64,000 bases of DNA from an uncultured Oscillospiraceae bacterium (GTDB lineage Bacteria; Bacillota; Clostridia; Oscillospirales; Oscillospiraceae), in NCBI GenBank assembly GCA_947625845.1, contig CANQQB010000002.1, positions 9,122-73,121 on the forward strand. Reading direction: 5' to 3'. This document shows positions 5,271 through 62,988 of this stretch, piece after piece. The position numbers and the translations under genes are program-made. Positions within the stretch are counted from its first letter, which is position 1. Each line of letters opens with the position of its first letter. The notes under the pieces are model-generated. The model had not been told where the DNA came from, did not search any database, and saw only the letters and a program-made list of their open reading frames with translations.

Positions 5271-5526
5271 AGCCTCCCCTGTGCAAGGGGAGGGGGACCG
5301 CGCGAAGTGCGGTGGAAGGGTTGTCGACAACCCTCCAGTCTCGTCGGAGCACGCTCGGCTAGGCCGGGATTCGCCGCAAGCAGCAAATCCCGGATAGCCA
5401 GCGGCTCCTCCTCTCCCCACGCGACAAGCGTGCCGCGTGGGGGCCCCAATAGGCGCGTGACAGCCCCCCTTACACAGGGGGGCCGTCGATATTGTGCGCC
5501 GGCGGCGTGATTTAAATATCTCCCCT
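5271..5526. repeat. Extragenic multi-hairpin repeat, locus A (TGTGCAA-loop arm + M4 core + arm)
   Basis: Left arm GCCTCCCCTGTGCAAGGGGAGG...GGAAGGGTTGT. 107-nt core 5341-5447, shared with 15029-15136 and 41059-41166. Right arm GTGACAGCCCCCCTTACACAGGGGGGCCGTCGATA. It ends at GATTTAAATATCTCC. Confidence 0.85.
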
Positions 5527-5551
5527 TTTTCGTCAAGCGCATATTTTTTGC

Positions 5552-5580
5552 TTGCGTTACATTGAACAATGCGATACAAT
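5552..5580 (+). promoter_or_regulatory. Sigma-A type promoter of LRR gene 1
   Basis: TTGCGT (5552-5557), 17-nt spacer, TACAAT (5575-5580). The arrangement is paralogous to 63021-63049. Confidence 0.55.
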
Positions 5581-5586
5581 AGGGAT

Positions 5587-5874
5587 ACGAGGTAAACAAA
5601 AGGCAGGACGTGAGGCGGTACCAACACCCCACGCCCCTATGCAGGAGCTAGCCCTCCCACACAGCAGAATTACTGCGCCGGACCCATTATAACCGTTGCC
5701 CCCCTTTTTTACAAGGACGGCTTGCGGCTGACGATGGGGCCAGTGTTGTCGTTCCACGGTGTAGGGAAGTTTCCCTGCACCGTCTTTTGTTTATCCCGGC
5801 GGAAGGGCTGCGGGCGGTCACTCGCCCCGGCCCAACTGTCGGGAAACAACTTAAGAAAGGAACGGTATAGCACT
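5587..5874 (+). promoter_or_regulatory. Long conserved 5' leader (candidate attenuator / cis-regulatory RNA) of LRR gene 1
   Basis: It aligns along its whole length with 63056-63364 (blocks GCCCCTATGCAGGAG, CTCCCACACAGCAG, GGTGTAGGGAA, TTAAGAAAGGAA). It contains an internal terminator. Confidence 0.55.
5756..5793 (+). terminator. Intrinsic terminator inside the leader
   Basis: ACGGTGTAGGGA (5756-5767) pairs with TCCCTGCACCGT (5772-5783). That is 12 bp with one G-U and a 4-nt loop. CTTTTGTTTA (5784-5793) follows. Confidence 0.6.
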
Positions 5875-7713
5875 ATGGCAAAGCGCGGTTTGTGTTTGCT
5901 CCTGGCGCTGGTGACGGTGTTCTCCCTCACCGCCCCAGCGTTCGCGGAGGAAGAACCGGTCACGGCGGAAGAACCCGTCGTGACGGAGGAACCGGAGGCC
6001 GAACCGGAGACGGCGGCGGAATACGGTGACTTCGGCAACGGCGTATTCTATCATCTGATGGACGACGGTGTTCTCACCGTCTCAGGCAGTGGCGCGATCC
6101 CAGAGGATGCGTTTCATTACCGGGACGACGTCAAAACAGTTGTCATAGAAAAGGGCGTGACCAGTATCGTGGACTATGCGTTTCTCGGCTGCACGTCGCT
6201 GACCAGTGTGACGATCCCGGACAGCGTGACTGACATCGGAGAGTGGGCGTTTTATGACTGTTCCGGTCTACAGGAAATCCAGGTCACGACAGGTAATAGC
6301 AATTACTCCTCTGTGGGAGGGGTGCTGTTCAATGCGGCTGGAACGGAGGTCGTTTGCTTTCCGAAAGGCTTTTCCGGCGTGTACACCATTCCTGACGGCG
6401 TGGCCAGCATCGGGGCGGGTGCGTTTTGGGGTTGCACGGCCCTGACCAGCGTGACGATCCCGAACGGCGTGACCAGCATCGGGGAAGCCGCGTTTTCAAG
6501 CTGCGGGGCGCTAACCAGCATAACGCTCCCGAACAGCGTGACCAGCATCGGGGATTATGCGTTTGACAGCTGCTATTCGCTGGCCAGCGTGACGATCCCG
6601 GGCAGTGTTACCGCCATGGGAGATTATACGTTCAGTTCCTGTACGTCATTGACTGACGTGACGCTCCAGAACGGCGTGACAAGCATTGGAGATTGGGCAT
6701 TTGAGTATTGCCGCTCGCTAACGAACCTAACGATCCCGAACAGTGTGACGAGCATCGGGATCGGGGCATTTTACAACTGTTTGCTGACAGACATAACGAT
6801 CCCAGACAGCGTGACCAGCATCGGTATCCAAGCGTTTCTTAACAGCGGTTTGACGAGTGTTACGATTCCGGCCAGCGTGACCAACATCGGGGGCCAAGCG
6901 TTTCTTGGCATGCTTCTGACAAGTGTGACGGTTCTGAATCCCAACTGTACTATTGGCGATTATTGGGGAAATGGTACGTCGCTGGGCGTCCCCGAACAGA
7001 CCGTTGTCCATGGCTATGCCGGGTCTACTGCGGAAGCGTATGCCAAACAGTGGGGCTATAAATTTGAAGCGCTTGCGCCTGTGCCCACGCCCACCCCCAC
7101 TCCCACGCCTACTCCTACGCCAACGCCTACGCCGGTGCCGACGGCCACGCCGGTGCCCAAGCTGGCGACGCCGAAGATCACCAAGATGGAGAATACCGCC
7201 AGCGGCCTGAAGGTGACCTGGGGCAAGGTGTCCGGCGCGGAGCGGTACATGGTCTTCTTCAAGGTCAAGGGAGCCAAGAGCTGGACCAAGATCGGCACGA
7301 CGACCGCCACCAGCTACACCCGCGCCGCCTCCAAGCTGAAAAACGGCACCACCTATATCTTCACCATCCGCTGCGTGAAAAATGACAAGAAGACCTACAA
7401 CAGCGACTATGACAAGGCCGGCGCGAGCCTGACCTTCTACGCCGCGCCGACGGTGAAGATCGCGAAGGTGGCCGGGGGAATCAAGGTGACGTGGAATAAG
7501 ATCACTGGCTCGCCGCGGTATATGGTGTACTACAAAGAAAACAATGGCGGGTGGAAGAAAATAGGGACCACCACCGCGACGAGCTACACCAGAGCGGCGA
7601 AGTACCTCAAGAACAATGTGACGTATACGTTTACGGTACGGTGCTGTGAGAACGATAAGAAAACGCTGCTGGGACCGTACAAGGCGAGCAATAGTTTGAA
7701 GTATACGAAATAA
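5875..7713 (+). CDS. BspA-like leucine-rich-repeat surface protein with a Pro-Thr linker and two C-terminal Fn3-like modules
   Basis: Signal peptide [24 protein letters not shown]. An acidic EEPVT spacer follows. There are about 11 repeats of the type IP..VTSIG..AF..C..LTSVT. The PTPTPTPT linker is at 7088-7158. Two ~85-aa repeats follow (K(I/V)...GG/SGLKVTW.K..G..RYMV(F/Y)(F/Y)K......[23 protein letters not shown](I/V)RC). The track start 5722 is an upstream extension. Confidence 0.85.
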
Positions 7714-7728
7714 AATTTATGGGCGCGT

Positions 7729-7822
7729 CGAAAGACGCGCCCATCATTATCGAAAGCCTCCCTCTGACGAGGGAGGTGGCGCGGCTTCGCCGCGTCGGAG
7801 GGAGAGACAAATTTCAAACTTC
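7729..7822. repeat. Extragenic repeat, locus D (stem-loop GGGCGCGTCGAAAGACGCGCCC plus one TGAC-loop arm)
   Basis: The hairpin at 7731-7752 is identical, in inverse orientation, to 51970-51991. The arm CCTCCCTCTGACGAGGGAGGTGGCGCGGCTTCGCCGCGTCGGAGGGAGAGA matches the right arms at 39240, 41282 and 55405. Confidence 0.8.
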
Positions 7823-7824
7823 CT

Positions 7825-7853
7825 ATGACATTTCCACAGACCTGTTGTATAAT
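7825..7853 (+). promoter_or_regulatory. Candidate promoter placed for a leaderless addB mRNA
   Basis: ATGACA (7825-7830), 17-nt spacer, TATAAT (7848-7853). The addB ATG at 7860 lies 6 nt after the -10 box and no SD is present. Confidence 0.4.
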
Positions 7854-7859
7854 GGACCC

Positions 7860-14649: not shown

Positions 14650-14716
14650 CCAATGCGCCTTGTAACGGCGGGCTTTTCCTCCCGCACTCAAGGCAGCTTG
14701 ATACGAGGTGAATGAA

Positions 14717-14920: not shown

Positions 14921-14940
14921 GAGGAAATGCCAATAGGTAC

Positions 14941-14968
14941 GCCCCGCTCATCCGAGCGGGGCGTTTAA
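14941..14968 (+). terminator. Rho-independent terminator of rpmE
   Basis: GCCCCGCTC-ATCC-GAGCGGGGC followed by GTTTAA. Confidence 0.65.
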
Positions 14969-15498
14969 CATTGCTGACGGCCCCCTTGTGAAAGGGGGCT
15001 GTCGAGCGTCAGCGAGACTGGGGGATTGTCGTCGGAGCACGCATGGCTAGGCCGGGATTCGCCGCAAGCGGCAAACCCTGGATAGCCAGCGGCTCCTCCT
15101 CTCCCCACGCGACAGGCGTGCCGCGTGGGGACCCCACGGCAATCCCCCCGAGCCGCCATTCGGCGGCCCACCCCCCTTTGACAAGGGGGGCGTTCGATAA
15201 GGTATTATTTAAATATCTCTCCCTCAGTCACCGCCTAAAGGCGGTGACAGCCCCCTCGACAGAGGGGGCCGGCCCCGCTGGGGCCGATTCGGGGGCAAAG
15301 CCCCCGCCTCCCTCTGACGAGGGAGGTGCCGAGCGACAGCGAGGCGGAGGGAGAGAAACATTAAAATCCAACGCGGTCCACGGCGTAAGCCGGGGACACC
15401 TTTTTGACATCGGCGGGCGGCGGTTATCTGGCGTTACAACCCTCCAGTCACGCTTACGCGTGACAGCCCCCCTTGCACAGGGGGGCCGTTCGATAAGG
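14968..15498. repeat. Extragenic repeat cluster, locus B (arm + M4 core + arm + full TGAC-type palindrome + GNRA hairpin + arm)
   Basis: It fills the whole convergent spacer between rpmE and the ABC ATPase gene. M4 core 15029-15136. Palindromic unit 15208-15369 (CTCTCC...GGGAGAGA). GTAA-loop hairpin 15376-15397. Final arm GTGACAGCCCCCCTTGCACAGGGGGGCCGTTCGATAAGG. Confidence 0.85.
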
Positions 15499-15499
15499 A

Positions 15500-16285
15500 T
15501 TATGACAATAGCATCCTGTCGTTATCCAGCGCCTTGCCCACGTTTTCCTTGAACATCCTCAGCAGGTCGTCCACGGTCAGGCCCTTGCGCGCGTCGCCCT
15601 TCAGGTCCAGCAGGATATGGCCCGCGTCCATCATCAGCGTCCGGTTGCCCAGTGCCAGAGCGGAGGACATGTTGTGGGTGATCATGAGGCAGGTGAGGTG
15701 ATTTTCCCGGACGATGCTCTCGGTCAGCGCCAGGACCTTTTCCGCCGTGCCGGGGTCCAACGCGGCGGTGTGTTCGTCCAGCAGCAGCAGCTTGGGCGGC
15801 ACCATGGTGGCCATCAGCAGCGTCAGCGCCTGGCGCTGCCCGCCGGACAGAAGCCCCACCGGCTGGCGCACCCGGTCCTCCAGCCCCATGTCCAGCAGGG
15901 AAAGCCGCTCCCGAAAGGCGGCCTTTTCCGCCTTGGAAACGTGGCTGAGCCACCCGCCGCCGCCGGCGGCCAGAGCCAGGTTTTCCTCGATGGTCATGGC
16001 CGGCGCGCTGCCCCGCATGGGGTCCTGGAAAAGCCGGCCGATGCTCCGGGCCCGCTTAAATTCCGGCTGGAAGGTGATGTCCTGCCCGTCCAGGGTGATG
16101 GAGCCGGTGTCGGGGTAAAAGCTGCCGGCGATGGCGTTGAACAGGGTAGACTTGCCCGCGCCGTTGGCGCCGATGATGGTGACGAAATCGCCGGGGTCCA
16201 GGTGCAGACTCACGTCCCGGAGGGCCGTCTTCTCGTTCACGGTGCCGGGGTTGAAGGTCTTGGAGATGTTTTGCAGCGTGAGCAT
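15500..16285 (-). CDS. ABC transporter ATP-binding protein (PF04392-type uptake system)
   Basis: Walker A GANGAGKST, signature LSGGQRQAL, Walker B LLLDEHTAALD. Third gene of the SBP-permease-ATPase operon. Confidence 0.9.
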   Translation of the reverse strand: MLTLQNISKTFNPGTVNEKTALRDVSLHLDPGDFVTIIGANGAGKSTLFNAIAGSFYPDTGSITLDGQDITFQPEFKRARSIGRLFQDPMRGSAPAMTIEENLALAAGGGGWLSHVSKAEKAAFRERLSLLDMGLEDRVRQPVGLLSGGQRQALTLLMATMVPPKLLLLDEHTAALDPGTAEKVLALTESIVRENHLTCLMITHNMSSALALGNRTLMMDAGHILLDLKGDARKGLTVDDLLRMFKENVGKALDNDRMLLS

Positions 16286-16288
16286 GCC

Positions 16289-17267: not shown

Positions 17268-17412
17268 TTTCTCTCCCCCCGTCTCGCCCTGGCGGGCGAG
17301 CCACCCCCCTCGTCAGAGGGGGGCGGCCCCTGCCGGTGCCGATTCGGGGGCGCAGCCCCCGGCCCCCTCTGACGAGGGGGCTGTCAGCGAAGCTGACTGG
17401 GGGAGAGATATT
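17268..17412. repeat. Extragenic repeat, locus C (single ~145-bp palindromic TGAC-type unit) inside the ABC operon
   Basis: TCTCTCCCCCC...CCCCCCTCGTCAGAGGGGGG...GATTCGGGGGCGCAGCCCCC...CCCCCTCTGACGAGGGGG CTGTCAGCGAAGCTGAC TGGGGGAGAGA. It occupies most of the 196-bp SBP-permease spacer (17219-17414). Confidence 0.85.
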
Positions 17413-17414
17413 GA

Positions 17415-18431
17415 TTACTCAAACTCTTCGGCAGTTTCAATGCCCTTCACGGCGGTGCACATGGGAGCGAACAGCTCCTCCAGCTCCTCGAAGGTCTTGC
17501 CGGTGATCTGCTCGCACACGTCGGTGTTGATGGTGGCGGTGCCGTTATCGAAGGTCATGACCGGCAGCTCCGCCGGGTCCGCGCCGTCCACCAGCACCTG
17601 AGCGATCATGTTGGCGGTCTCCACGCCCAGGTTGGCGTAGTCCACGCCGTAGCCCAAAAACGCGCCGTTCAGGGCAAAGGAGTCCGCGCCGGTGTAGTGG
17701 GGGATGCCGGCCTCGGCCAGAGCCTCATAGATGCTGAGCTCCGCGGTCATGATGGTGTTGTCGGAGGGGGTGAACACCGCGTCCACGCCGTCGGCGATCA
17801 GGCTGTCCACGGCCAGCTGGACCTCGGGGACGGTGGTGCCGTTATACTCTTTGTACTCCACGCCCTTCTCGTCCAGATACTCCTTGGCGGCGGCGATGGG
17901 GGTGGCGGAGGAATCCTGCCCGATGTCATAGAGCAGGCCGATGGTCTTGGCGTCGGGGTTCTCGGCGAAGATCAGGTCCATGACGGCGTTGGTGTCCAGG
18001 TAATCGCTGGTGCCGGTGATGTTGGCGCCGGGGTGGTCGTTGCTCTCCACGATGCCGGCGGCCTCCGGGTCGGACACGGCGGAGAAGATCACGGGGATCT
18101 GGTTATCCTCGGTGTCGGCCTGCATGGCCATGGCCACAGGCGTGGCCACGCCCACCATCAGGTCCACCTCGTCGGCGATGAAGTTCTGGATGATCTGCTC
18201 CATGACGGTGGCGTCGGCGTTGCAGTTGTCCACGGACACGTCGAAGGTGACGCCCTTTTCCTCGCCGATGGCGGCAAGCTGGTTCTGGATGTTCTCCACG
18301 ATCTGGTTCAATGACGCGTCGTCCACGTAGTTGCAGATGCCGACCTTATAGGTTTCCCCGTCGGCAAAGGCCACGGACGCCAGGCTCAGGATCATAACAA
18401 GGGCCAAAACGGTGCAGATAAGCTTTTTCAT
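17415..18431 (-). CDS. ABC transporter substrate-binding lipoprotein-like protein (ABC_sub_bind type), predicted tryptophan-related
   Basis: Signal peptide MKKLICTVLALVMILSLASVAFA. YKVGICNYVDDASLNQI and the overall pattern are typical of PF04392 binding proteins. AAGGAG SD upstream of ATG 18431. A Trp T-box lies upstream. Confidence 0.8.
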   Translation of the reverse strand: MKKLICTVLALVMILSLASVAFADGETYKVGICNYVDDASLNQIVENIQNQLAAIGEEKGVTFDVSVDNCNADATVMEQIIQNFIADEVDLMVGVATPVAMAMQADTEDNQIPVIFSAVSDPEAAGIVESNDHPGANITGTSDYLDTNAVMDLIFAENPDAKTIGLLYDIGQDSSATPIAAAKEYLDEKGVEYKEYNGTTVPEVQLAVDSLIADGVDAVFTPSDNTIMTAELSIYEALAEAGIPHYTGADSFALNGAFLGYGVDYANLGVETANMIAQVLVDGADPAELPVMTFDNGTATINTDVCEQITGKTFEELEELFAPMCTAVKGIETAEEFE

Positions 18432-18561
18432 TTTAAAATTCTCCTTTTCATGCTTTCTCATATTATTTTTGGTTTGTGTTTTTGGTGTTTCGGTGTGTTG
18501 TCCTTCACGCCCGCCATCGCTTGGACAGTATAAACATTTCGTGTACCTCCTGTTTTGCAAA

Positions 18562-18852
18562 TAAAAAATCCTGCCCCTAGCATTTCTGCTGGGACAGGAT
18601 GTTTCAAACTTCCTGCGGTGCCACCCGGCTTGACGCTCTCGCGTCCGCTTTGCTCCGCGCTGTCACGCGGCGGCGTTGTTCACGGAGCGCCTCTCTCCGT
18701 CTCACATAGGGCGGAAACACATCCGCCTTCCGATCGCCCTCCGAAGTCCATTCGCACATTCCGGCCTGTACCGCGCTCTCAGCCTCCGCGGCTCTCTGTG
18801 CCACGCCTGGAAAGGTTACTTGCTCTTCTTCAACGGTTTGGTGTATTAAATT
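18562..18852 (-). promoter_or_regulatory. T-box riboswitch leader, specifier UGG (Trp)
   Basis: Read on the minus strand. Stem I elements are AGTA, AGAGAG and the distal-loop GGCTGAGAG. The specifier loop is GAA-TGG-A (TGG = complement of 18748-18750). The T-box sequence is AGCCGGGTGGCACCGCAGG (18611-18630). The terminator is ATCCTGTCCC...GGGGCAGGAT (18568-18600) followed by TTTTTTAT. Confidence 0.8.
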
Positions 18853-22683: not shown

Positions 22684-23202
22684 TTAGCTTTTCGTCGACT
22701 GAAATTCATCTTGAAGTGATCCGTACAAATACAGGTCTACCCAATTCCCCTCATTGTTTTGCGTCTGGCTTCTCTGTACTCCCTCGCGCTTCATGCCCAG
22801 CTTTTCCATCAATCCAACTGACTTCACACCGTCAATGGTCTCCGCGACTATTTTATGCAATTTCATGTCAGAAAAGCCGTATCGCAGCACTGCGGAGCAG
22901 GACTCATACGCATAACCCTGACGCCAATATTTTTTATTAAATATCCAGCCGATCTCATAGACATCATCACCCCACGGCTTAAACAGGATATAACCAATTA
23001 CTTTGTGGGTCTGTTTCAGCTCCGCCGCCAGCGCGCCGCGTTTTCCGATGCAAAATTCGTGCAGAAATCGCCCCGTCTTTTCAAGCGTATAGGCGGGCTC
23101 ACAATTTTGCATCGTTTCGCTGTCGCCGAGGATTTCCTGTAGATCGTCTATATCGTTCGGCGTAAAATCCCTGACATACATTCTTGATGTTTCTATCTGC
23201 AT
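22684..23202 (-). CDS. GNAT-family N-acetyltransferase (RimJ/RimL-like), in an AT-richer islet
   Basis: MQIETSRMYVRDFTPNDIDDLQEILGD...IGYILFKP...EIGWIFNKKYWRQGYAYESCSAVLRYGF...LHKIVAETIDGVKSVGLMEKLGMKREG. GAGGTG SD upstream of ATG 23202. Confidence 0.8.
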   Translation of the reverse strand: MQIETSRMYVRDFTPNDIDDLQEILGDSETMQNCEPAYTLEKTGRFLHEFCIGKRGALAAELKQTHKVIGYILFKPWGDDVYEIGWIFNKKYWRQGYAYESCSAVLRYGFSDMKLHKIVAETIDGVKSVGLMEKLGMKREGVQRSQTQNNEGNWVDLYLYGSLQDEFQSTKS

Positions 23203-23501
23203 ATTAGTCACCTCACTAAATTTGAAATTCCATTTCAAACTTGTTGAACAGGTAAAGACGCGAAGCGGGTTTATCTGTTCGGCAAGTACACTGGGGATAG
23301 CCGCTTTAGCGGCGCAAGGGGGTGTAGCCCCCTTGACGGAGCGGAGCGACGAAACCTCTCGGACGGCGGCTTTCTGCTGTCAGAGAGGAAGCCTCGCAGA
23401 GCGCACGATACATGGTCGCCAGACCTATGTATGGAAGTGTGCCCTTTCGCTCCGAAAGGATTTTGCAACTTCTCGACAAGAAAGAATATCTAAGATGGGT
23501 T

Positions 23502-24098
23502 TTATTCTACCATGCTTTTCAAAATGCTTGTTATATCTTTTACTGCTTTAGCTGGTTTATCGCTCATAATCTCCCAAACAGGTGCTGAACTTTGCTGCCC
23601 GGAAAAATATCCTCGGGCACAAGACAAGACTGTCTCCACATCCTGCTTTTCAAACATGGCATCAATAGCTTCGTCAAAAAAGAGCATATCACATTTTTGA
23701 GGACACTCATCATCTAATTCGATCTCATATAAATGGATTTTTGCTCTTTCTTCTTCAGGCTCCTGCTTCCACCCTGCCTCATAGAGAGTTTTATAATTTT
23801 CAAGGTTGTCGAAAAAATATTTACATTTCAATCGACTGAGACAGTGCGGAAACTCTGTTTTGCGAACAAATTCAAAAACACCTTCAACGCTATATGTTTC
23901 ATACTTTGCCCGGTCTAAACACACCAATTCGTTGGGCACTGTCTGTTGAGCTTGACCGTTGGCAAGCATATCACAAAAGGTGTCAATTCCCTTTTCAAGC
24001 GCATACACGAATGGAAGAGTGAGTTCATATTTCTTCTCAAAATCGTTTTTCATCTCTTCTCCTAATACGAGCGTTTGGCTCATATGATATAAAATCAT
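23502..24098 (-). CDS. Hypothetical cytoplasmic protein (198 aa), in an AT-richer islet
   Basis: AGGAGGTGG SD upstream of ATG 24098. Coding-like composition. I recognise no motif. Confidence 0.55.
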   Translation of the reverse strand: MILYHMSQTLVLGEEMKNDFEKKYELTLPFVYALEKGIDTFCDMLANGQAQQTVPNELVCLDRAKYETYSVEGVFEFVRKTEFPHCLSRLKCKYFFDNLENYKTLYEAGWKQEPEEERAKIHLYEIELDDECPQKCDMLFFDEAIDAMFEKQDVETVLSCARGYFSGQQSSAPVWEIMSDKPAKAVKDITSILKSMVE

Positions 24099-33126: not shown

Positions 33127-33137
33127 GGAAAGACACA

Positions 33138-33418
33138 TTATTGACGGCCCCCCTGTGCAAGGGGGGCTGTCACGCGTTAGCGTGACTGGAGGGTTGTACC
33201 GGGACTGGTAACAACCCTTCCGAGCGCCGCAAAGCGGCGCCCACCTCCCCTTACACAGGGGAGGCTTTCAATAAGGAAGAGGATTTAGAATCCAACGGGT
33301 CCACGGCGTGAGCCGGGGACACCATTAGCGGAGGCGCTGGCGCACTACTGTTACAACCCTTCCGAGCGCCGCAAAGCGGCGCCCACCTCCCCTTGCACAG
33401 GGGAGGCTTTCAATATGG
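33138..33418. repeat. Extragenic repeat cluster, locus E (full TGTGCAA-type palindrome + GNRA hairpin + half unit)
   Basis: TTGACGGCCCCCCTGTGCAAGGGGGGCTGTCACGCGTTAGCGTGACTGGAGGGTTGT // ACAACCCTTCCGAGCGCCGCAAAGCGGCGCCCACCTCCCCTTACACAGGGGAGGCTTTCAA. GTGA-loop hairpin at ~33298-33319. The right arm is repeated at 33350-33412. Confidence 0.85.
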
Positions 33419-33428: not shown

Positions 33429-33457
33429 AAAACCTCCCCTAAACAGGGGAGGTTTTT
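33429..33457. terminator. Bidirectional terminator
   Basis: AAAACCTCCCC-TAAACA-GGGGAGGTTTTT. The stem is perfect, with an A-run and a T-run on either side. Confidence 0.65.
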
Positions 33458-33882
33458 CAAAGCGGAATATCTTCCTCGTCCATTAAAATGATGCCGTGTT
33501 CCGACAGGAGGTTGGCGGTGACGCCCTGGCCGGGGATGACCTTACCCGTAAACGTGCCGTCGTACACCGCGTGGACGCCGCAGGAGGGGCTGCGGGCCTT
33601 TAAGATGGCGTGGGTCACGCCATGCTTTTGGCAGAAGGCCAGGGCCTTTTCCGCGCCGGCGTTGAACTCCGCCGTCACGTCGTCGCCGGCCTTGCTGTAC
33701 ACCCGGCCGTCCCGTATCTCGCTGGGCAGGCGCGGGGCCGGCAGGCCGGAGGCACGCTCCGGACAGAAGACCACATAGTCCTTGTCCCGGAGAAATGCCC
33801 GGACGGCGGCGTTATCGTTGTTGCCGCCGTTATACTTGCAATTGTGCCCCATGAGACACGCGCTGACCAAATACTTGCTCAT
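33457..33882 (-). CDS. DUF523-family protein (TudS-like thiouracil desulfidase family)
   Basis: MSKYLVSACLMGHNCKYNGGNN...VFCPERASGLP.PR.PSEI...ILKARSPSCG is the conserved Cys pattern of DUF523. Confidence 0.8.
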   Translation of the reverse strand: MSKYLVSACLMGHNCKYNGGNNDNAAVRAFLRDKDYVVFCPERASGLPAPRLPSEIRDGRVYSKAGDDVTAEFNAGAEKALAFCQKHGVTHAILKARSPSCGVHAVYDGTFTGKVIPGQGVTANLLSEHGIILMDEEDIPL

Positions 33883-38991: not shown

Positions 38992-39334
38992 CTTGTTGAC
39001 GGCCCCCCTGTGTAAGGGGAGGTGGCGAGCGAAGCGAGGCGGAAGGGTTGTAACGTTGTGGTTTACGGACAACCCTCCAGTCAGCGCCAAAGGCGCTGAC
39101 AGCCCCCCTTACACAGGGGGGCCGTTCGATAAGGAAAGATTTAAATATCTCTCCCCCAGTCAGCGCAAAGCGCTGACAGCCCCCTCGTCAGAGGGGGCCG
39201 GCCCCTGCCGGGGCCGATTTCGGGGGCAAAGCCCCCGCCTCCCTCTGACGAGGGAGGTGGCGCGGCGCAAGCCGCGACGGAAGGAGAGAAACATTAAAAT
39301 CCAACGCAGTCCACGGCGTGAGCCGGGGACACCT
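38992..39334. repeat. Extragenic repeat cluster, locus F (full TGTGCAA-type palindrome + full TGAC-type palindrome + GNRA hairpin)
   Basis: 38992-39135 is the TGTGCAA-type unit. 39140-39293 reads CTCTCCCCCAGTCAGCGCAAAGCGCTGAC...GGAAGGAGAGA. 39294-39334 reads AAAATCCAACGCAGTCCACGGCGTGAGCCGGGGACACC and abuts the stop codon of the radical-SAM gene. Confidence 0.88.
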
Positions 39335-40198: not shown

Positions 40199-40280
40199 AT
40201 TTTCTCTCCCCCAGTCAGCGCGAAGCGCTGACAGCCCCCTCGTCAGAGGGGGCCGGCCCCTCTGGGGCCGATATCGGGGG
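40199..40280. repeat. Extragenic repeat, locus G (left arm and centre of a TGAC-type unit)
   Basis: TTTCTCTCCCCCAGTCAGCGCGAAGCGCTGACAGCCCCCTCGTCAGAGGGGGCCGGCCCCTCTGGGGCCGAT. It overlaps the last ~22 codons of the GNAT gene and provides GGGAGAGA upstream of the radical-SAM ATG. Confidence 0.85.
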
Positions 40281-40841: not shown

Positions 40842-40884
40842 TTTTCATCCTCCGTGTTTGTATATCGCCGTCGGGCGATACTTT

Positions 40885-41460
40885 GTTGAAAGCCTCCCCT
40901 GTGCAAGGGGAGGTGCCGAGCGAAGCGAGGCGGAAGGGTTGTCTGTTATTGAACGTTACAACCCCTCCGAGCCGCCATACGGCGGCCCACCTCCCCTTAC
41001 ACAGGGGAGGCTTTCAATAAGGATGCGGCGCAGCCGCACAATTTTGACGGCCCCCTTGTCGTCGCCGCTCGCTGGGCTAGGTCGTGATTTGCCGCAAGCG
41101 GCAAACCCCGAATAGCCCGCGGCGTCTCCTCTCCCCAAAAGGCAAGCGTGCCTTTTGGGGGCCCCATTCAAAAAGGAAAAGGATTTAAATTATTCTCTCC
41201 CTCAGTCAGCGCGAAGCGCTGACAGCCCCCTCGTCAGAGGGGGCCGGCCCCGCCGGGGCCGATTCGGGGGCAAAGCCCCCGCCTCCCCCTGACGGGGGAG
41301 GTGGCACGGCGCAAGCCGTGACGGAGGGAGAGAAGCATTAAAATCCAGCGCAGTCCCCGGCGGGAGCCGGGGACACCTTTGGCGCGGCGGGGACAGCACC
41401 GTTACAATCCCCCCGCCCGCCGTGGCGGGCACCCCCCCCTTTGACAAGGGAGGCTTTCCA
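40885..41460. repeat. Extragenic repeat cluster, locus H (largest: TGTGCAA-type palindrome + M4 core + TGAC-type palindrome + GNRA hairpin + arm)
   Basis: 40885-41022 is a full unit. M4 core 41059-41166. TGAC-type unit 41186-41345. GGGA-loop hairpin GTCCCCGGCGGGAGCCGGGGAC around 41360. Final arm ...CCCCCCCCTTTGACAAGGGAGGCTTTCC. Confidence 0.88.
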
Positions 41461-41490
41461 TATGGTGCGCGGCTTGCGCCGCGCAGATTT

Positions 41491-50910: not shown

Positions 50911-50962
50911 CATTATTGACGGCCCCTTTGTGTAAAGGGGGCTGTCAGCGCGCTGCGCTGAC
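50911..50962. repeat. Extragenic repeat, locus I (single TGTGTAA-loop arm)
   Basis: ATTATTGACGGCCCCTTTGTGTAAAGGGGGCTGTCAGCGCGCTGCGCTGAC. Confidence 0.75.
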
Positions 50963-51218: not shown

Positions 51219-51956
51219 ATGAGTACGATGACGGTGGACGAGAAAAAGCTGCGGTACATGGAGTACATCCACCGGGAGACCGGGGAGCGGCACCACACCA
51301 ACGAGGAGGACATGCGCCAGTACGAGATGCTGCGCGCCGGGGATCCAGGGACCGTGGACGAGGCGGTGCGCATTTTTGCCTCCGACCTGCCGGGGCACGT
51401 GTCCAATGACCCGATAAGAAACTGCAAGTATCTGTTCGTGGCGTCCGCGACCATGGCATGCCGGACGGCGATGGCCGCCGGGATGGAGCCGGAGCGGGCC
51501 TACAACAGCAGCGACCTTTTCATCCTGCGCATGGACGAGATGGACAGCATCGAGGCCATCCGAGCCCTGCGGCGGGAGATGTTCGAGTTTTATTTGAAGG
51601 AGGTGCAGGCCGTGCCAAGGCGCACGCCCTATTCCCGGCCGGTGGCCCGGTGCGTGGACTATATCTACGAGCACCTGCACCAGCGCATCACGGTCCCGGA
51701 CCTGGCGGCGCAGGCGGGCCTGACGGCCAGCTATCTGTCCACGCTGTTCAAGAGGGAGACGGGTCGGTCCATCTCGGACTATGTGCTGGATAAGCGCATC
51801 GAGGCGGCGGGGAATATGCTCAAGTTCTCGGATTATTCCTGCGCGGACATCGGGGCCATCCTGGCGTTCAGCTCCCAGAGCCACTTTATCCGGGCGTTCA
51901 AGGCCCGCACGGGCCTGACGCCGAGAGCCTACCGGGAGCGATTTTTCGAGGGGTGA
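51219..51956 (+). CDS. AraC-family transcriptional regulator
   Basis: C-terminal double HTH: VDYIYEHLHQRITVPDLAAQAGLTASYLSTLFKRETGRSISDYVLDKRIEAAGNMLKFSDYSCADIGAILAFSSQSHFIRAFKARTGLTPRAYR. Confidence 0.9.
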   Translation: MSTMTVDEKKLRYMEYIHRETGERHHTNEEDMRQYEMLRAGDPGTVDEAVRIFASDLPGHVSNDPIRNCKYLFVASATMACRTAMAAGMEPERAYNSSDLFILRMDEMDSIEAIRALRREMFEFYLKEVQAVPRRTPYSRPVARCVDYIYEHLHQRITVPDLAAQAGLTASYLSTLFKRETGRSISDYVLDKRIEAAGNMLKFSDYSCADIGAILAFSSQSHFIRAFKARTGLTPRAYRERFFEG

Positions 51957-51969
51957 AAGGATAATGCGA

Positions 51970-52054
51970 GGGCGCGTCTTTCGACGCGCCCGTTGTCTCT
52001 CCTTCCGTCAACGCTTCGCGCTGCCACCTCTCCTTACACAGGGGAGGCTTTCAA
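51970..52054. repeat. Extragenic repeat, locus J (GGGCGCGTCTTTCGACGCGCCC hairpin plus one arm)
   Basis: This is the inverse orientation of locus D. It is followed by TCTCTCCTTCCGTCAACGCTTCGCGCTGCCACCTCTCCTTACACAGGGGAGGCTTTCAA. Confidence 0.8.
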
Positions 52055-52092
52055 AGCGGACAACCAGCCCGCCGCGAAATGCGGCGGGCCCT

Positions 52093-52650: not shown

Positions 52651-52699
52651 GCGGAAAATATGGTATGATTTCAGAAAACCATCGGAAAGGACGGGCGGT

Positions 52700-55258: not shown

Positions 55259-55510
55259 GGGAGAGACGCCTTTTTCGGGAGCGCAGCGTAAGCCGCGAGG
55301 TCAGGAGAGATACTAAAGTTTTCTCTCCCCCAGTCAGCTTCGCTGACAGCCCCCTCGTCAGAGGGGGCCGGCCCCGCAGGGCCGATTCGGGGGCGCAGCC
55401 CCCGCCTCCCTCTGACGAGGGAGGTGGCGCGGCGTAAGCCGCGACGGAAGGAGAGATATTTAAATCCTCTTCCTTATCGAAAGTTCCCTTGCACAGGGGC
55501 CGACGATAAT
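55259..55510. repeat. Extragenic repeat cluster, locus K (half arm + full TGAC-type palindrome + arm)
   Basis: It starts immediately after the polA stop (GGGAGAGACGCC...). The full unit 55321-55466 reads TTCTCTCCCCCAGTCAGCTTCGCTGAC...GCGCGGCGTAAGCCGCGACGGAAGGAGAGATATTTAAATCC. CCCTTGCACAGGGGCCGACGATAAT follows. Confidence 0.88.
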
Positions 55511-55564
55511 GTGCGGCTGCGGCGCGTGTCTTTCCACAAGTGCACTTTGCGGGTACGGGACGAG

Positions 55565-56568: not shown

Positions 56569-56571
56569 GAG

Positions 56572-57576: not shown

Positions 57577-57585
57577 AGGGACCGG

Positions 57586-58041: not shown

Positions 58042-58055
58042 AAATGGAGCGAGCT

Positions 58056-59185: not shown

Positions 59186-59213
59186 TAACTTCACACAAAG
59201 GAGAAGTAGAAAA

Positions 59214-59843: not shown

Positions 59844-59856
59844 CAATAAAAAAGCT

Positions 59857-59890
59857 TCACCGGCGGGAATTTCTCCCGCCGGTGATTTTT
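59857..59890. terminator. Bidirectional terminator between upp and htpG
   Basis: AAAAAAGCT-TCACCGGCGGGA-ATTTC-TCCCGCCGGTGA-TTTTTAT. 12-bp perfect stem. Confidence 0.7.
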
Positions 59891-59905
59891 ATGCGGTTTT
59901 GGCTT

Positions 59906-61813
59906 TTAGAACAGCTCGCACACAAGCTCCGTGTACGCCGCCGGGTCGTCCAGGGGAAGGCCGGCGATCAGCTGGGCCTGGGCCAGCAGGACCATGGAGA
60001 GCTTGGCGGCGCGGGACTTGTCCTCCCTGTACGCCTTTTCCAGCGCGGCGAAGGCCGGGTGGGAGCCGTTCAGCTCCAGCACCCGCTTGGCCTTGACCCG
60101 CTCCGCCTCGGGCACGCCGGGCAGGTTCTGGAAGTACTTCTCCATCTCCAGCGTGACCTCGCCCTCGGTGGTCAAAAACACCGGCTGGCTCTTGAGCTTG
60201 TGGGAAAGGCGCACCGTCTCCACCGTGCCGCCAAGGCTCTGCTTGACGAAATCCAGCAGCTCTTTGGACTGCTCCGCTTTTTCCTCGGTGTCCTTCTTTT
60301 CCTCGTCGCTCTCCAGACCCAGATCGTCGCTGGTCACGTTGCAAAATTCCTTCTCATTGTAGGCGTGCAGCAGCTGCATCACGAACTCGTCCACGCTGTC
60401 CGTCAGGCACAGCATGTCGTAGCCCGCCGCCTTCACCGTCTCCGCCTGAGGCAGGGCTGCCGCCCGCTTCTCCGTCTCGGCGCAGGCGTAGTAGATCTTC
60501 TTCTGGCCCTCCGGCATGGCGTCGGCGTACTCTTTGAGGCTGATGAGTTTTTCCTGCCCCACGCTGTGGAACATGAGAAGGTCCTTGAGCTGGTCCTTGT
60601 GCATGCCGTAATCGCCCACCACGCCGTACTTGAGCTGGGGTGCGAAGGCCTTGTAGAACGTCAGGTACTTCTCCCTGTCCTCGGCCATGAGCCGGGTCAG
60701 CTCCGCCTGTATCTTCTTCTCCAAATTGCCGGCGATGATCTTCAATTGCCGGTCGTGCTGCAAAAGCTCCCGGGAGATGTTCAGGCTCAGGTCCGGGGAG
60801 TCCACCACGCCCCGGACGAACCGGAAGTGCTCCGGCACCAGGTCCGGGCACTTGTCCATGATCATCACCCCGGAGGAATAGAGCTGCAAGCCCGGCTGAT
60901 AGTCCCGCGTGTAGTAGTCATAGGGGGCCTGTGCCGGGATGAAGAGCATGGCGCGGTAGCTGGTCAACCCCTCGGCGTTCACGCGTATCACCGCCACCGG
61001 GTCGGCGCTGTCGTGGAAGTGCTCCTTGTAATACGCCTTGCAGTCGTCGTCAGACGCCTCGGCCTTGGACCGCTGCCAGATGGGGACCATGGTGTTGACC
61101 ACCTGGTCCTCGGCGACGGTGTTATACGCGCCTTTGCCGTCCTCGCCGCCTTTTTCGTCCCACTCCCGGCGCTCCACCGTCATGTGGATGGGCCAGCGCA
61201 CGTAATCGGAGTACTTCTTCACCAGCTCCTTGAGCCGCCAGCTCTCCAGATACGTGCCGTAGTCCTCCTGGTCCGCGTCGGCCTTGATGTGCATGATCAC
61301 GTCCGTGCCTACGGAATCCTTGTCGCAGGCCGTGACGGTGTACCCGTCCGCGCCGGCGGATTCCCACTTCCAGCCCTGGTCCTCCCCAAAGGCCCGGCTC
61401 AGCACCGTCACCTTGTCGGAGACCATGAACGCGGAGTAAAACCCCACGCCGAACTGGCCGATCACGTCCACGTCCGCCGCCTTCTCGTCCTCAGCCAGGC
61501 TGTCCCGGAAAAGCCGGGTGCCGCTGGAGGCGATCACACCCAGGTTGCTCTCCAGCTCGTCCTTCGTCATGCCGATGCCGTTGTCCCGGACGGTCAGGGT
61601 CCGCGCGTCCTTGTCCGCGTCGATGCGGATGCAGAAATCCTCCCGGTTCATGCCCACCGTCTCGTCCGTCAGGGACTTGTAGCACAGCTTGTCGATGGCG
61701 TCGGAGGCGTTGGAGATGATCTCCCGGAGAAAAATCTCCTTGTGGGTGTAGATGGAGTTGATCATCAGGTCCAAAAGCCGCTTGGATTCCGCCTTGAACT
61801 GTTTCTTTGCCAT
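59906..61813 (-). CDS. htpG: Molecular chaperone HtpG (Hsp90)
   Basis: FKAESKRLLDLMINSIYTHKEIFLREIISNASDAIDKL...IGQFGVGFYSAFMV. 635 aa. Confidence 0.95.
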   Translation of the reverse strand: MAKKQFKAESKRLLDLMINSIYTHKEIFLREIISNASDAIDKLCYKSLTDETVGMNREDFCIRIDADKDARTLTVRDNGIGMTKDELESNLGVIASSGTRLFRDSLAEDEKAADVDVIGQFGVGFYSAFMVSDKVTVLSRAFGEDQGWKWESAGADGYTVTACDKDSVGTDVIMHIKADADQEDYGTYLESWRLKELVKKYSDYVRWPIHMTVERREWDEKGGEDGKGAYNTVAEDQVVNTMVPIWQRSKAEASDDDCKAYYKEHFHDSADPVAVIRVNAEGLTSYRAMLFIPAQAPYDYYTRDYQPGLQLYSSGVMIMDKCPDLVPEHFRFVRGVVDSPDLSLNISRELLQHDRQLKIIAGNLEKKIQAELTRLMAEDREKYLTFYKAFAPQLKYGVVGDYGMHKDQLKDLLMFHSVGQEKLISLKEYADAMPEGQKKIYYACAETEKRAAALPQAETVKAAGYDMLCLTDSVDEFVMQLLHAYNEKEFCNVTSDDLGLESDEEKKDTEEKAEQSKELLDFVKQSLGGTVETVRLSHKLKSQPVFLTTEGEVTLEMEKYFQNLPGVPEAERVKAKRVLELNGSHPAFAALEKAYREDKSRAAKLSMVLLAQAQLIAGLPLDDPAAYTELVCELF

Positions 61814-61841
61814 AAGTAAAAATGCGCTTCCTTTCTTGGGT

Positions 61842-61868
61842 TTGGCACTCTTGGTCTTTGAGTGCTAA
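61842..61868 (-). promoter_or_regulatory. CIRCE operator (HrcA binding site)
   Basis: Minus strand: TTAGCACTC-AAAGACCAA-GAGTGCCAA. The consensus is TTAGCACTC-N9-GAGTGCTAA, so there is one mismatch. It lies between the promoter and the htpG start. Confidence 0.8.
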
Positions 61869-61895
61869 TTTAGCACATTCCCAGGCCGTTGTCAA
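61867..61895 (-). promoter_or_regulatory. Sigma-A promoter of htpG
   Basis: Minus strand: TTGACA (61895-61890), 17-nt spacer, TAAATT (61872-61867), overlapping the CIRCE left arm. Confidence 0.6.
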
Positions 61896-62009
61896 GCCCA
61901 TTACAAGTGGTTACAAATCTTTATTTCCCCTTTACAATCCCGACGGTCGATGGATATAATAATTTTGAATTTACATAATATTGCAGATGAGACTTTATGG
62001 AGGTGGACC

Positions 62010-62822
62010 ATGAGACGGTTGGGGATTTGGCTTACCGCTTTGGCGGTCCTGCTGGGCTGTCTGGCCACATGCGGCGCTGCCGCCCCCACCGACGTGCCGG
62101 AGACGGTGGCGCTGCCCGCCGCTGTGGACGGCTGGCAGGACAGCTACCTGGCCTTTGTGGCCAACGATTACGATATCCTGGCCGCTCTGTGGCCTGACGG
62201 ACTGGGCGGCGTGGGGTTCATCGACCTGGACCTGGACGGCACGCCGGAGATGGTGGCCTTTGACCAGGGAGCCTCGGCGGCTCTGGGCGCGCAGATATTC
62301 GACCTGGCGGACGGACAGGTGTACTGCGTGTCCAGCACGCTGGACAGCGCCGCCGGCGCCTTTGACGACACGTATCTTTCCGGCGTGAGCGTGTGCACCA
62401 GCTTTTTTGAGTCCTTCCGCCTGAGCCGCACGCAGGACGGCTGGTGCTTCTGGGTGGACAGCTCCAACGGCACCGACCAGACCTCCTGGGACGAGATCGT
62501 CCGCTTCAACGGCCGGGACGGGGTGCTGGCGCCGGTGAGTACCTGCTACCGGTACCTGGAATTTGACCCGGTCAGCGGCGTGGTGGTCTCGGAGAGCTAC
62601 ACCGTGGCCGGCGCGGGCGCGGACGCCACGGCCTATCAGGCGGCGGCCGACGTGTACCAGGGCGCGCTGGACGCGGGCTATGAGGCCAAGGGCGTGTTTT
62701 TGTGGGATGACTACGACAGGTACAGCGCCGGCCGCGACGGGCTTTTGACCATGGTGAAGGATGCCCTGACGGCCTATGTCCCCATCACGGACACGGTGAC
62801 GTTGGCGTCGCCGGTGGAATAA
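62010..62822 (+). CDS. Hypothetical lipoprotein / secreted protein
   Basis: MRRLGIWLTALAVLLGCLATCG is a signal peptide with an LLGC lipobox-like site. GGAGGTGG SD upstream of ATG 62010. I recognise no domain. Confidence 0.6.
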   Translation: MRRLGIWLTALAVLLGCLATCGAAAPTDVPETVALPAAVDGWQDSYLAFVANDYDILAALWPDGLGGVGFIDLDLDGTPEMVAFDQGASAALGAQIFDLADGQVYCVSSTLDSAAGAFDDTYLSGVSVCTSFFESFRLSRTQDGWCFWVDSSNGTDQTSWDEIVRFNGRDGVLAPVSTCYRYLEFDPVSGVVVSESYTVAGAGADATAYQAAADVYQGALDAGYEAKGVFLWDDYDRYSAGRDGLLTMVKDALTAYVPITDTVTLASPVE

Positions 62823-62988
62823 AAGGTGTCCCCGGCTTACGCCGGGGACGCACCTTATCAAAAGCCCCCCTTGTCAAAGGGGGGTGCCCGCCATCGGCGG
62901 GCGGGGGGATTGTCCCCTCGCGCCGCAGCGCGGCCCCCTCTGACGAGGGGGCTGTCAGCGCCTTTGGCGCTGACTGGGGGAGAGAATC
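62823..62988. repeat. Extragenic repeat cluster, locus L (inverted GNRA hairpin + TTGTCAA-loop arm + TGAC-type right arm)
   Basis: AAGGTGTCCCCGGCTTACGCCGGGGACGCACC; AAAAGCCCCCCTTGTCAAAGGGGGGTGCCCGCCATCGGCGGGCGGGGGG; CCCCCTCTGACGAGGGGGCTGTCAGCGCCTTTGGCGCTGACTGGGGGAGAGA. Confidence 0.85.

Follow-up and report, generated by a model that had tools for sequence, protein, structure and literature searches.

We analyzed a 64,000-nt stretch of contig CANQQB010000002.1 (assembly GCA_947625845.1, positions 9,122 to 73,121) from an uncultured Oscillospiraceae bacterium, referred to below as the window. Twelve of its intergenic loci are filled with GC-rich multi-hairpin repeats. These repeats have no gene of their own and are non-autonomous; in its complete form, the family to which they belong includes a gene for a DUF559 protein, a putative nuclease. 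The assignment is carried by the anatomy of the repeat unit, covariation at the DNA level, the spread of the unit across taxa, a fixed-register linkage to DUF559 genes, and turnover at orthologous sites. Our full explanation goes further: the nuclease would nick the repeat motif, and repair of the nick by copying would spread the units. We consider this whole statement probable, with considerable room for error.

Anatomy and arrangement of half-units

Comparison of the window with related sequences gave a half-unit of about 52 nt. It consists of a pyrimidine tail, TCTCTCCCNC (consensus TCTCTCC(C/T)(C/T)C), and two hairpins. Hairpin 1 has an (A/C)GTC tag with a variable stem and loop; hairpin 2 is constant, CC(C/T)CCTC-GTCA-GAGG(G/A)GG. 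There are two flavors, a (...CAGTC-hairpin 1-GACAG-CCCCCTC...) and b (...CCGTC-hairpin 1-GCCAC-CTCCCTC...). A profile search found 201 half-units in the window and 77 loci, and later 392 in 884 kb, which represent 190 unique cores. CGTC is present on at least 76 of these 190 unique copies (b-type) and AGTC on at least 84 a-type copies. Hairpin-1 stems measure 6-9 bp, with loops of 3-5 nt and a GCCAC tail. Stems that start with A/T pairs (AAAACC..., ATTTGC...) occur in low-GC hosts, and none was found in the window.

Half-units are arranged head-to-head as a-center-b (39 cases), tail-to-tail with a spacer of 5-25 nt (about 30 cases), or solo (44 cases). Paired half-units are a/b heterodimers, and their linkers are conserved within a lineage. 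A first-pass annotation of the window had taken the head-to-head palindrome as the basic unit, at 145-150 bp; the measured length is 135-142 bp. Because halves also occur solo and tail-to-tail, and because the center of the palindrome varies between species, the half-unit is the better definition, the palindrome being its head-to-head pair. In E. coli, bacterial interspersed mosaic elements (BIMEs) are built from two flavors that alternate with specific head-head and tail-tail linkers. By analogy, the alternation of half-units can be described as a BIME architecture.

The sister unit, here called B to distinguish it from the A type described above, has the same layout and a/b dichotomy, with tail ACAACCC and hairpin 2 CCCCCCTTACACAGGGGGG. 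In the window, B units are mostly tail-to-tail, and no gene tied to B-type pairs was found. A further module, the 107-nt core, comprises a long CGTC-tagged hairpin and a second hairpin. It occupies the spacer of tail-to-tail B units or, among relatives, takes the place of hairpin 1 of an A half. The latter is seen at L065 1122-1228, L037 2314-2420, L051 5321-5422 and L032 6580-6693 (locus numbers denote the sequences compared), where the core directly follows the tail ...CAGTC and both stems have compensatory variants. Since it replaces or sits inside hairpin 1 at this point, the core behaves as a nested insertion or an oversized hairpin-1 variant.

Conservation of structure at the DNA level

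Covariation was examined in 26 diverse half-units of equal length (set A2), with 500 shuffles as controls. In this set, 95% of the cells were paired, against 44-57% in slid controls. Double-sided changes were observed 65 times, compared with 16 ± 3.3 in the shuffles, and none of the 500 shuffles reached 65. Compensation was almost exclusively Watson-Crick, with G-U in only 2 of 416 cells. Such compensation keeps both strands paired, which is the pattern expected of a DNA palindrome and not of an RNA.

Among all copies, hairpin 1 was represented by 157 distinct sequences, and a stem of 6 bp or more formed in 88% of them, compared with 24% of shuffles. Two complementary states were seen for hairpin 2 (110 and 74 copies), and three exceptions are non-complementary. 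Tail and hairpin 2 change together: the combinations T,T (113) and C,C (65) stand against 11 discordant ones (Fisher p 1e-38, with copies that are not independent). Furthermore, 160 of the 190 unique copies, and 8 of 11 scanned half-units of the window, have a tail that mirrors the purine arm exactly and in parallel. Such a mirror repeat of tail and hairpin 2 has the design of an intrastrand triplex, and its sequence predicts that it is triplex-competent. A hammerhead reading of CTGATGAG/CTGACGAG in hairpin 2 was rejected, as these bases belong to an ordinary stem-loop and ribozyme models gave no match.

A DUF559 gene in fixed register with the half-units

In related locus L003, the orthologous counterpart of window spacer 14921-15499 has a DUF559 gene of 121 aa placed exactly between tail-to-tail half-units. 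Among the compared orthologous spacers between rpmE and the ATP-binding cassette (ABC) transporter genes, only L003 has this gene. The same arrangement was found at a different locus in a second relative and at four further loci (three exact-protein look-ups). In the independent loci examined first, the gene lay between inverted half-units in 6 of 6 cases (L003, L037, L078, two genes in L080, and L085). In the related genomes it encodes 120-140 aa and occupies the tail-to-tail spacer, reading from a to b in L037 and from b to a in the other loci.

The upstream half-unit ends in GGAGGGAGAGA(A)AA-ATG, and its tail is therefore Shine-Dalgarno-like for the DUF559 gene. The same role for downstream host genes was rejected, since the spacing to window genes is 20-50 nt. 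The downstream half-unit begins within the last DUF559 codons, and the reading frame thus runs into it, giving the recurrent C-terminus SLPQS...APSSEGA.

A metagenome scan with the DUF559 alignment gave 80 loci at 67-81% identity. A downstream half-unit was present in 69 of the 77 testable loci, mostly at a fixed offset; in 49 it started exactly 15 nt ahead of the point where the protein match ends. An upstream half-unit lay within 40 nt of the start in 55 of 78, and 47 of these end 1-3 nt before the ATG. Both were found in 50 of 75 loci. Several upstream halves scored as missing are degenerate copies or hybrids with a B-type hairpin 2. DUF559 was the sole gene seen between inverted half-units, and no transposase domain was found in the DUF559-bearing element that shares the half-unit ends.

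Matches to Pfam DUF559 (PF04480) scored 89.6-167 bits against a cut-off of 20.6, with E-values of 1e-25 to 1e-49, and this subfamily comprises more than 5,000 clusters at 90% identity. The closest solved sequence is Neisseria gonorrhoeae NGO0050 (PDB 3HRL). With an AlphaFold2 model (pLDDT, the predicted local distance difference test score, 78), the top Foldseek matches were 3HRL and 3R3P, the catalytic domain of homing endonuclease I-Bth0305I; Vsr (1VSR) ranked lower. Residues D50, E61, D63 and H67 are invariant, and we take them to be catalytic from general knowledge of the family. The model thus points to a putative Vsr-like PD-(D/E)XK nuclease. Compared with Vsr and I-Bth0305I-type nucleases, whose fold and Pfam family it shares, the associated protein is a single domain of about 115 aa with no added DNA-binding domain, and its gene lies outside any intron or intein. 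In the loci examined, no cytosine methyltransferase was seen nearby. No literature linking DUF559 or ycjD, the E. coli member, to these repeats was found among open-access papers and bioRxiv, and the linkage appears to be new.

Turnover at orthologous sites

Orthologous spacers show gain and loss of units. In the spacer between the permease and substrate-binding protein (SBP) genes, the arms of the unit are 100% identical over 55 + 54 nt between the window and L002 (15882-16009), while the adjacent coding DNA differs. The center is swapped for the one typical of each species. Upstream of addB, L003 has no unit, the window one half and L002 three halves. The orthologous half has switched flavor, with b in the window and a in L002.

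On either side of some DUF559 elements stand long direct repeats (17-50 bp), in which the 3' end of the upstream gene is duplicated. Their length is 50 bp in L125, exceeds 27 bp in L156 and is 16-45 bp in others; most copies have none. The elements concerned are L125 1364-1957, L156, L161, L149, L121 and L109 (about 200 bp in L109). The repeats could represent a long, variable target duplication or a recombination scar.

Distribution across taxa

The repeats are not confined to the window. Relatives among rabbit-gut metagenome-assembled genomes (MAGs), with AddA 89% and 80% identical, have the same modules in many spacers. A scan of representative genomes with a 23-mer from hairpin 2 gave at least 74 loci. 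Among the matches listed were rabbit Oscillospiraceae MAGs, Faecousia, Lawsonibacter, Acutalibacteraceae, a rumen Clostridiales genome, and the bifidobacteria B. rousetti (at least six loci), B. callitrichos, B. reuteri and B. stellenboschense.

The 50-nt half-unit of Bifidobacterium is nearly identical to the clostridial one and is intergenic. The a-type half-units in this genus (L004, L009, L013, L018, L022, L043, L055, L066 and L070) are single intergenic copies in primate- or bat-associated species. B. stellenboschense L004 654-831 holds one a/b tail-to-tail pair with a 77-nt spacer, and one half-unit copy is orthologous between B. callitrichos and B. rousetti.

The b-type half-units were also found on 11 IMG/VR contigs (L186, L194, L195 and eight others), which are classed as viral and have no DUF559 gene. 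L186 and L194 show five copies, all in the same orientation and at gene boundaries. The a-type 23-mer had no match in viral contigs, nor did viral contigs contain relatives of the DUF559 protein. Such contigs could be a vehicle of transfer between phyla, or misclassified host DNA.

DUF559 genes in other phyla and in E. coli

A tblastn search with clostridial DUF559 against PLSDB, which includes chromosomes mislabeled as plasmids, gave 28 matches of 31-47% identity, of which 12 were fetched. GC-rich palindromes of the same design flank the gene in 11 of these 12. By the strict rule of a perfect pyrimidine/purine hairpin within 150 nt of DUF559, 8 of 11 qualified. The palindrome-flanked genes belong to Proteobacteria, Deinococcus and cyanobacteria. 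In Novosphingobium the gene stands between two b halves, b(reverse complement)-DUF559-b, whose CCTCCGTC-hairpin-GCCACCTCCC blocks are the same. This element is a CGTC-tagged repetitive extragenic palindrome (REP) by layout and a b-type half-unit as well. In Deinococcus, inverted CCTCCCCC hairpins lie 18 nt upstream and 3 nt downstream of the gene, and in Azospirillum, Sphingomonas and Shinella hairpin pairs stand on one or both sides. Synechocystis has one palindrome upstream. N. gonorrhoeae and Photobacterium contain arrays of CTCTCTCCC-TGT-GGGAGAGAG-type hairpins. These tandem arrays lie downstream of DUF559 (L171, N. gonorrhoeae, 1430-2260, period about 281 bp; L181, Photobacterium, 985-1515, about 148 bp), and each array unit contains pyrimidine/purine hairpins.

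In E. coli, ycjD is the only DUF559 gene and lies between sapF and fabI. An exact copy of TMECO/BoxC, a triplex-forming repeat, is found at the 3' end of ycjD in strain KE47, and a second exact TMECO lies 168-195 bp downstream of ycjD in KE47 and K-12. Given 23 TMECOs per K-12 genome, the probability of such proximity by chance was estimated at about 0.002. The gene is present in about 61% of 5,426 complete E. coli genomes, always at one locus. A clean empty site or insertion polymorphism for ycjD was sought and rejected, as strains lacking the gene hold a different gene cluster at this locus, the eef efflux cluster (PMC12817139).

Published TMECO counts are 19-30 in most ycjD-bearing strains of phylogroups A, B1 and C (UMNK88 has 13), 1-2 in B2 strains, 11 in O157:H7, and 6-15 in 042, UMN026 and IAI39. 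O157:H7 was confirmed to be ycjD-negative. The latter three strains presumably represent phylogroups D/F. It is suggestive that TMECO counts follow the presence of ycjD in E. coli.

Relation to known repeat systems

The first-pass annotation had placed the repeats in no named family; three observations show that they have relatives: the three-block design of BoxC/PIT/TMECO, the consensus of the CGTC-tagged REPs, and the shared blocks of the Novosphingobium element. BoxC/PIT/TMECO is an intrastrand-triplex motif of E. coli and 262 proteobacterial genomes (Holder 2015, PMC4666352). Knowledge of BoxC/PIT in E. coli dates from the 1990s and that of CGTC-tagged REPs from 2013, and the origin and maintenance of both are described as open questions (PMC4666352, PMC3733652).

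The half-units share three blocks with BoxC/PIT/TMECO: a C-rich arm, the G-rich arm complementary to it, and another that is a mirror of the purine arm. Both are GC-rich, strictly intergenic, present in dozens of copies and in both orientations, tied to genome rearrangement, and have no transposase or integrase near. On the other hand, the literal TMECO pattern CCCTCNCCC-N3-6-GGGNGAGGG-N3-GGGNGAGGG, present next to E. coli ycjD, was not found in the window by a regular-expression search allowing up to two substitutions. Half-unit stems are 7 bp instead of 9 bp, and a hairpin-1 module (an 18-25-nt tagged hairpin or the 107-nt core) stands in place of the 3-nt second loop. Moreover, half-units dimerize head-to-head or tail-to-tail with conserved linkers, and their hosts are Clostridia and Bifidobacterium.

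Similarity to CGTC-tagged REPs, which include Neisseria dRS3 (PMC3733652), lies in hairpin 1 of the b type, composed of CGTC, a stem, a short loop and a (G)CCA tail. Head-to-head dimers are common in both, two-flavor heterodimers occur, copies are intergenic, and a dedicated transposase was reported to be lacking. The REP consensus is an unpaired CGTC (or TGTC/CCTC) tag at one hairpin end and an 8-9-bp A/T-first stem with a 4-5-nt loop and a CCA tail, while half-units have the 6-9-bp stems, 3-5-nt loops and GCCAC tail given above. Further differences are the AGTC...GACAG of the a flavor, the window stems without A/T-first pairs, the embedding of the REP part in a larger half-unit with a tail and second hairpin, and the frequency of tail-to-tail dimers, which are rare in CGTC REPs. 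Occurrence of CGTC REPs in Firmicutes and Actinobacteria was not previously reported. A clostridial and bifidobacterial family with a double-hairpin half-unit appears to be new, as does the joining of the tail, the CGTC-REP-like hairpin 1 and the BoxC-like hairpin 2 as parts of one unit.

The earlier comparison with REP and BIME elements holds for the architecture, with two alternating flavors, specific linkers and intergenic position; the family has known relatives, however, and its candidate enzyme differs. Like the REP doublets (REPINs) of E. coli and Pseudomonas and their associated RAYT transposases, the repeats are short palindromes in inverted doublets, and the associated gene is flanked by inverted repeats, with a single-copy gene and dispersed repeats in E. 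coli. Copies between genes of an ABC-transporter operon are a further likeness to REP/BIME. In contrast, the GTAG tag was not found 5' of the palindrome in any copy, the flanked gene encodes a PD-(D/E)XK Vsr-like nuclease and not a HUH Y1 transposase, and the half-unit has a triplex-type mirror block. Miniature inverted-repeat transposable elements (MITEs) such as Correia, RUP and Nezha resemble the repeats in their units of about 140 bp, terminal inverted repeats, position beside AT-rich DNA, and ends shared with a longer coding element. They differ in that the parent element here has no DDE transposase, the flanks show no short fixed target-site duplication, and halves occur alone and in both relative orientations.

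Proposed mechanism and alternative explanations

The complete element consists of two inverted half-units of about 52 nt flanking the DUF559 gene of 120-140 aa. As single-stranded or extruded DNA, a half-unit may fold into two hairpins or an intrastrand triplex. We infer that the nuclease recognizes and nicks the folded or duplex motif, and that repair of the nick copies from other copies, by gene conversion or fill-in of staggered nicks. Such copying would spread, homogenize and reshuffle the units, which would explain the homogenized arms, lineage-specific linkers, flavor switches, occasional long flank duplications and the reported instability near BoxC. The system would be a counterpart of REPIN/RAYT with a different class of enzyme, and the window would contain passive copies only. 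Copies within operons are co-transcribed and may affect mRNA ends as well.

A more general reading is that DUF559 nucleases are the missing cognate enzymes of a pan-bacterial superfamily of GC-rich palindromic or triplex repeats. This would include enterobacterial BoxC/PIT/TMECO, CGTC-tagged REPs, the Neisseria arrays, the clostridial and bifidobacterial half-units, and possibly RIME-like alpha-proteobacterial elements. An element of about 0.5 kb, with two structured inverted repeats and a 115-aa nickase, would then drive local rearrangement by nick-induced copying and not by a transposase. We put this forward tentatively, giving it somewhat less than an even chance. It would supply a candidate enzyme for BoxC/triplex motifs and CGTC-tagged REPs, both described without a mobility gene, and the fixed-register linkage in Clostridia, echoed in five other phyla, makes it a concrete and cheaply testable hypothesis. 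If true, it adds a second enzyme class to the REPIN/RAYT paradigm, explains these motifs as markers of rearrangement hot spots, and provides a function for a very large family of domains of unknown function.

Several points weigh against nuclease-driven copying. No DUF559 gene was found in the window or seen in nine loci of Bifidobacterium. A recognizable upstream half-unit is missing from about 29% of DUF559 loci. The two DUF559 copies in L080 are only 76% identical and thus bear no mark of recent self-copying. No target-site duplication of short, constant length was found, and only about 6 of 66 loci have long direct repeats. The E. coli gene ycjD is present once per genome at a fixed locus, its absence reflects replacement by the eef operon and not a clean empty site, and the correlation with TMECO counts rests on few phylogenetic events. 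Template switching can yield compensatory changes in palindromes without selection. Finally, binding and cutting of these motifs by DUF559 proteins is a prediction.

The strongest competing explanation reverses the roles: the repeats would pre-exist and spread otherwise, and DUF559 would be a homing-type selfish gene that targets the tail-to-tail junction as a landing site instead of being cargo. The closest folds indeed include the catalytic domain of a homing endonuclease, the gene is always in the tail-to-tail spacer, and it is present or absent within an otherwise repeat-filled orthologous spacer. The common ORF-less (open reading frame-less) tail-to-tail pairs with 5-25-nt spacers could be empty sites. 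However, homing leaves the multiplication of the repeats and the homogeneity of their arms unexplained. The opposite direction of the gene in L037 is unexpected for a single homing site, and the flanking arrangement in Proteobacteria varies (direct, inverted or one-sided). We regard a homing parasite as unlikely, if worth keeping in mind.

Roles for the host, a hidden transposase or an RNA gene fit the data less well than spread by a DUF559 nuclease. The repeats might be host-maintained structural or regulatory elements, such as stabilizers of mRNA 3' ends, attenuators, terminators or DNA-structure signals, with DUF559 as a host nuclease that processes them. All are intergenic, many lie just past stop codons or in operon spacers, as does the REP between malE and malF, and conservation is much higher in their arms than in flanking coding DNA. 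In Caulobacter, Vsr-like DUF559 proteins have a role in repair (PMC12907096). Yet the hairpins are not followed by a T run, a canonical terminator belonging to rpmE itself precedes the mosaic, units occur in both orientations and as halves, and orthologous spacers gain, lose and swap them. BoxC/PIT had no promoter or terminator activity in published tests (PMC4666352). The near-identical half-units in Bifidobacterium and Clostridia argue for horizontal spread rather than a host-specific function. A host role is a good deal less plausible than homing.

The first-pass annotation had expected a RAYT or IS200-type Y1 transposase as the cognate enzyme. Classical REPINs or MITEs mobilized in trans by such an enzyme, or by a DDE transposase elsewhere in the genome, would account for the likeness to REP doublets and BIMEs, and our search covered only part of each genome. 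A HUH/Y motif screen, a crude filter, found no Y1-like ORF in about 560 kb of loci; the GTAG tag is absent, and the gene between inverted half-units is DUF559 in every case seen. No transposase was flanked by CGTC REPs in many genomes (Di Nocera 2013, PMC3733652), and no transposase or integrase was found near TMECO (Holder 2015, PMC4666352). We consider mobilization of this kind very improbable.

Least credible of all is a role as structured non-coding RNA genes or cis-regulatory RNAs. Strong, covarying hairpins speak for it, as do the operon-internal copies, which are certainly transcribed, but Rfam gave no match at gathering score (inside the loci solely chance-level E-values of at least 0.5), compensation uses almost no G-U pairs, and the units are palindromic as DNA and occur in both orientations relative to genes.

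Repeat loci of the window

Sequence inspection and a repeat search located the modules at all 12 loci described by the first-pass annotation. Their estimated extent of about 2.8 kb, or 4% of the window, compares with a measured 2,863 bp (4.5%). The profile search gave 14 A-type matches and 16 B-type half-units, all within the 12 loci; one match counted as A-type, 39074-39121, is actually a B half. All 13 perfect pyrimidine/purine hairpins whose stems reach 7 bp or more lie in the loci and none in the other ~61 kb, so the loci are not due to chance.

The copies are extragenic, as had been noted: the neighboring ORFs of all loci have high third-position GC content (GC3) and Pfam support. Flanking genes include addB/addA, rpmE, the ABC transporter operon, a GH38 mannosidase, parB-like, radical-SAM, GNAT, helix-turn-helix (HTH), major facilitator superfamily (MFS) and AraC genes, polA, pcp and htpG. 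ORFs that overlap loci (e.g., 15043-15552, 5264-5632, 40956-41171 and 41202-41447) have a flat GC3 of 0.60-0.73, against 0.80-0.91 in most real genes, and are therefore spurious, as had been proposed. In practical terms, the repeats create such ORFs and C-terminal extensions and break metagenome assemblies. ENA contig L001, which has the same sequence as the window, ends inside the 14968-15498 mosaic; AddA of the window is 100% identical to P0001.

The 22-nt GNRA hairpin is present five times. The earlier claim that GNRA tetraloops and triloops dominate holds only in part: hairpin-2 loops are GTCA/TGAC or TGTGCAA and hairpin-1 loops are highly variable. Similarly, GCGAAGC/GCTTCGC is enriched about 12-fold in the loci (8 of 22 window occurrences), but it occurs in a minority of the hairpins instead of most copies.

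In the following, half-units were assigned with the A or B profile (nhmmer), other modules by repeat search or sequence comparison; paired units carry no strand. At the first locus, a B half, the left arm of a tail-to-tail pair (5264-5324, -), is followed by the 107-nt core in the spacer (5341-5448, +) and a partial right B arm (5455-5489, +). The hairpin GGGCGCGTCGAAAGACGCGCCC at 7721-7742 (+), 8 nt past the stop of a leucine-rich repeat (LRR) gene, has an ortholog with compensatory changes in L002 and is probably an ordinary terminator-type hairpin. Next to it is the solo A half of b flavor upstream of addB (7757-7807, -), supported also by ortholog comparison.

The mosaic downstream of rpmE contains left B arm 14969-15029 (-), the core within the tail-to-tail spacer (15029-15136, +) and right B arm 15140-15202 (+). 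It continues with a head-to-head A unit (15216-15356; a 15216-15272, GC-rich center, b as reverse complement 15304-15356), the 22-nt hairpin GTCCACGGCG-TAA-GCCGGGGAC (15376-15397, +) and a solo B half abutting the stop of the ABC ATPase gene (15436-15498, +). The one copy within the ABC-transporter operon, a head-to-head A unit at 17270-17408, fills the spacer between the SBP and permease genes and is the ortholog of L002 15882-16009.

Farther along are a tail-to-tail B unit (33136-33276; 33136-33197, -, and 33211-33276, +), a 22-nt GNRA hairpin (33299-33320, +) and a solo B half (33353-33418, +). The next locus combines a tail-to-tail B unit (38993-39134; 38993-39051, -, and 39069-39134, +), a head-to-head A unit (39148-39289; a 39148-39201, b reverse complement 39235-39289) and a GNRA hairpin (39309-39330, +). 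A solo A half of a flavor (40203-40256, +) is followed by part of the center, to about 40280. The mosaic beyond it has a tail-to-tail B unit (40883-41022; 40883-40942, -, and 40958-41022, +), the third copy of the 107-nt core (41059-41166, +), a head-to-head A unit (41194-41333; a 41194-41247, b reverse complement 41279-41333), a GNRA hairpin (41353-41374, +) and a solo B half (41404-41465, +).

A partial B half (50911-50952, -) and a B half (52001-52055, +) enclose an AraC-family regulator gene (51219-51956). The geometry is the tail-to-tail one seen around DUF559 genes elsewhere, and is probably coincidence here. The second window copy of GGGCGCGTCGAAAGACGCGCCC, a reverse complement with the hairpin GGGCGCGTC...GACGCGCCC, lies 14 nt past the AraC stop (51970-51991, -). 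Just past the polA stop is a degenerate b-type A half (GGGAGAGA...GCGCAGCGTAAGCCGCG...GGAGAGA; 55259-55310, -), then a head-to-head A unit (55322-55456; a 55322-55371, b reverse complement 55402-55456). The last locus holds a GNRA hairpin (reverse complement, 62828-62849, -), a B half (62853-62913, -) and a solo A half of a flavor (62931-62985, -).

Other features of the window

The segment 33429-33459, AAAACCTCCCCTAAACAGGGGAGGTTTTT, is a hairpin that has a B-type hairpin-2 stem bordered by runs of A and T. It lies just past the stop of gene 33457-33882 on the minus strand and resembles a bidirectional terminator made from the stem of the repeat.

Upstream of the gene for the ABC substrate-binding protein (17415-18560), a T-box leader was matched at 18587-18842 (-) over the full model length, with 52.7 bits against a gathering score of 93 and an E-value of 1e-8. 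This sub-threshold match suggests tRNA-sensing control of the ABC transporter operon. Coding repeats with a 69-nt period are present at 6131-6920 and 63818-63999, representing BspA-type LRRs (Pfam LRR_5) in two separate genes, 5722-7713 and an ORF that extends beyond the window end; identity between 5872-6009 and 63362-63499 is 82%. Three low-GC islands (4001-5000, 23001-24000 and 2001-3000), with GC of 0.43-0.50 against about 0.63 for the window and with high-GC3 ORFs weak or missing, may represent foreign or non-coding DNA. Finally, three coding repeats of about 71 nt, spaced 204-240 nt apart, occur at 903-1417 inside ORF 738-2162, which therefore encodes a protein with a repeated domain.

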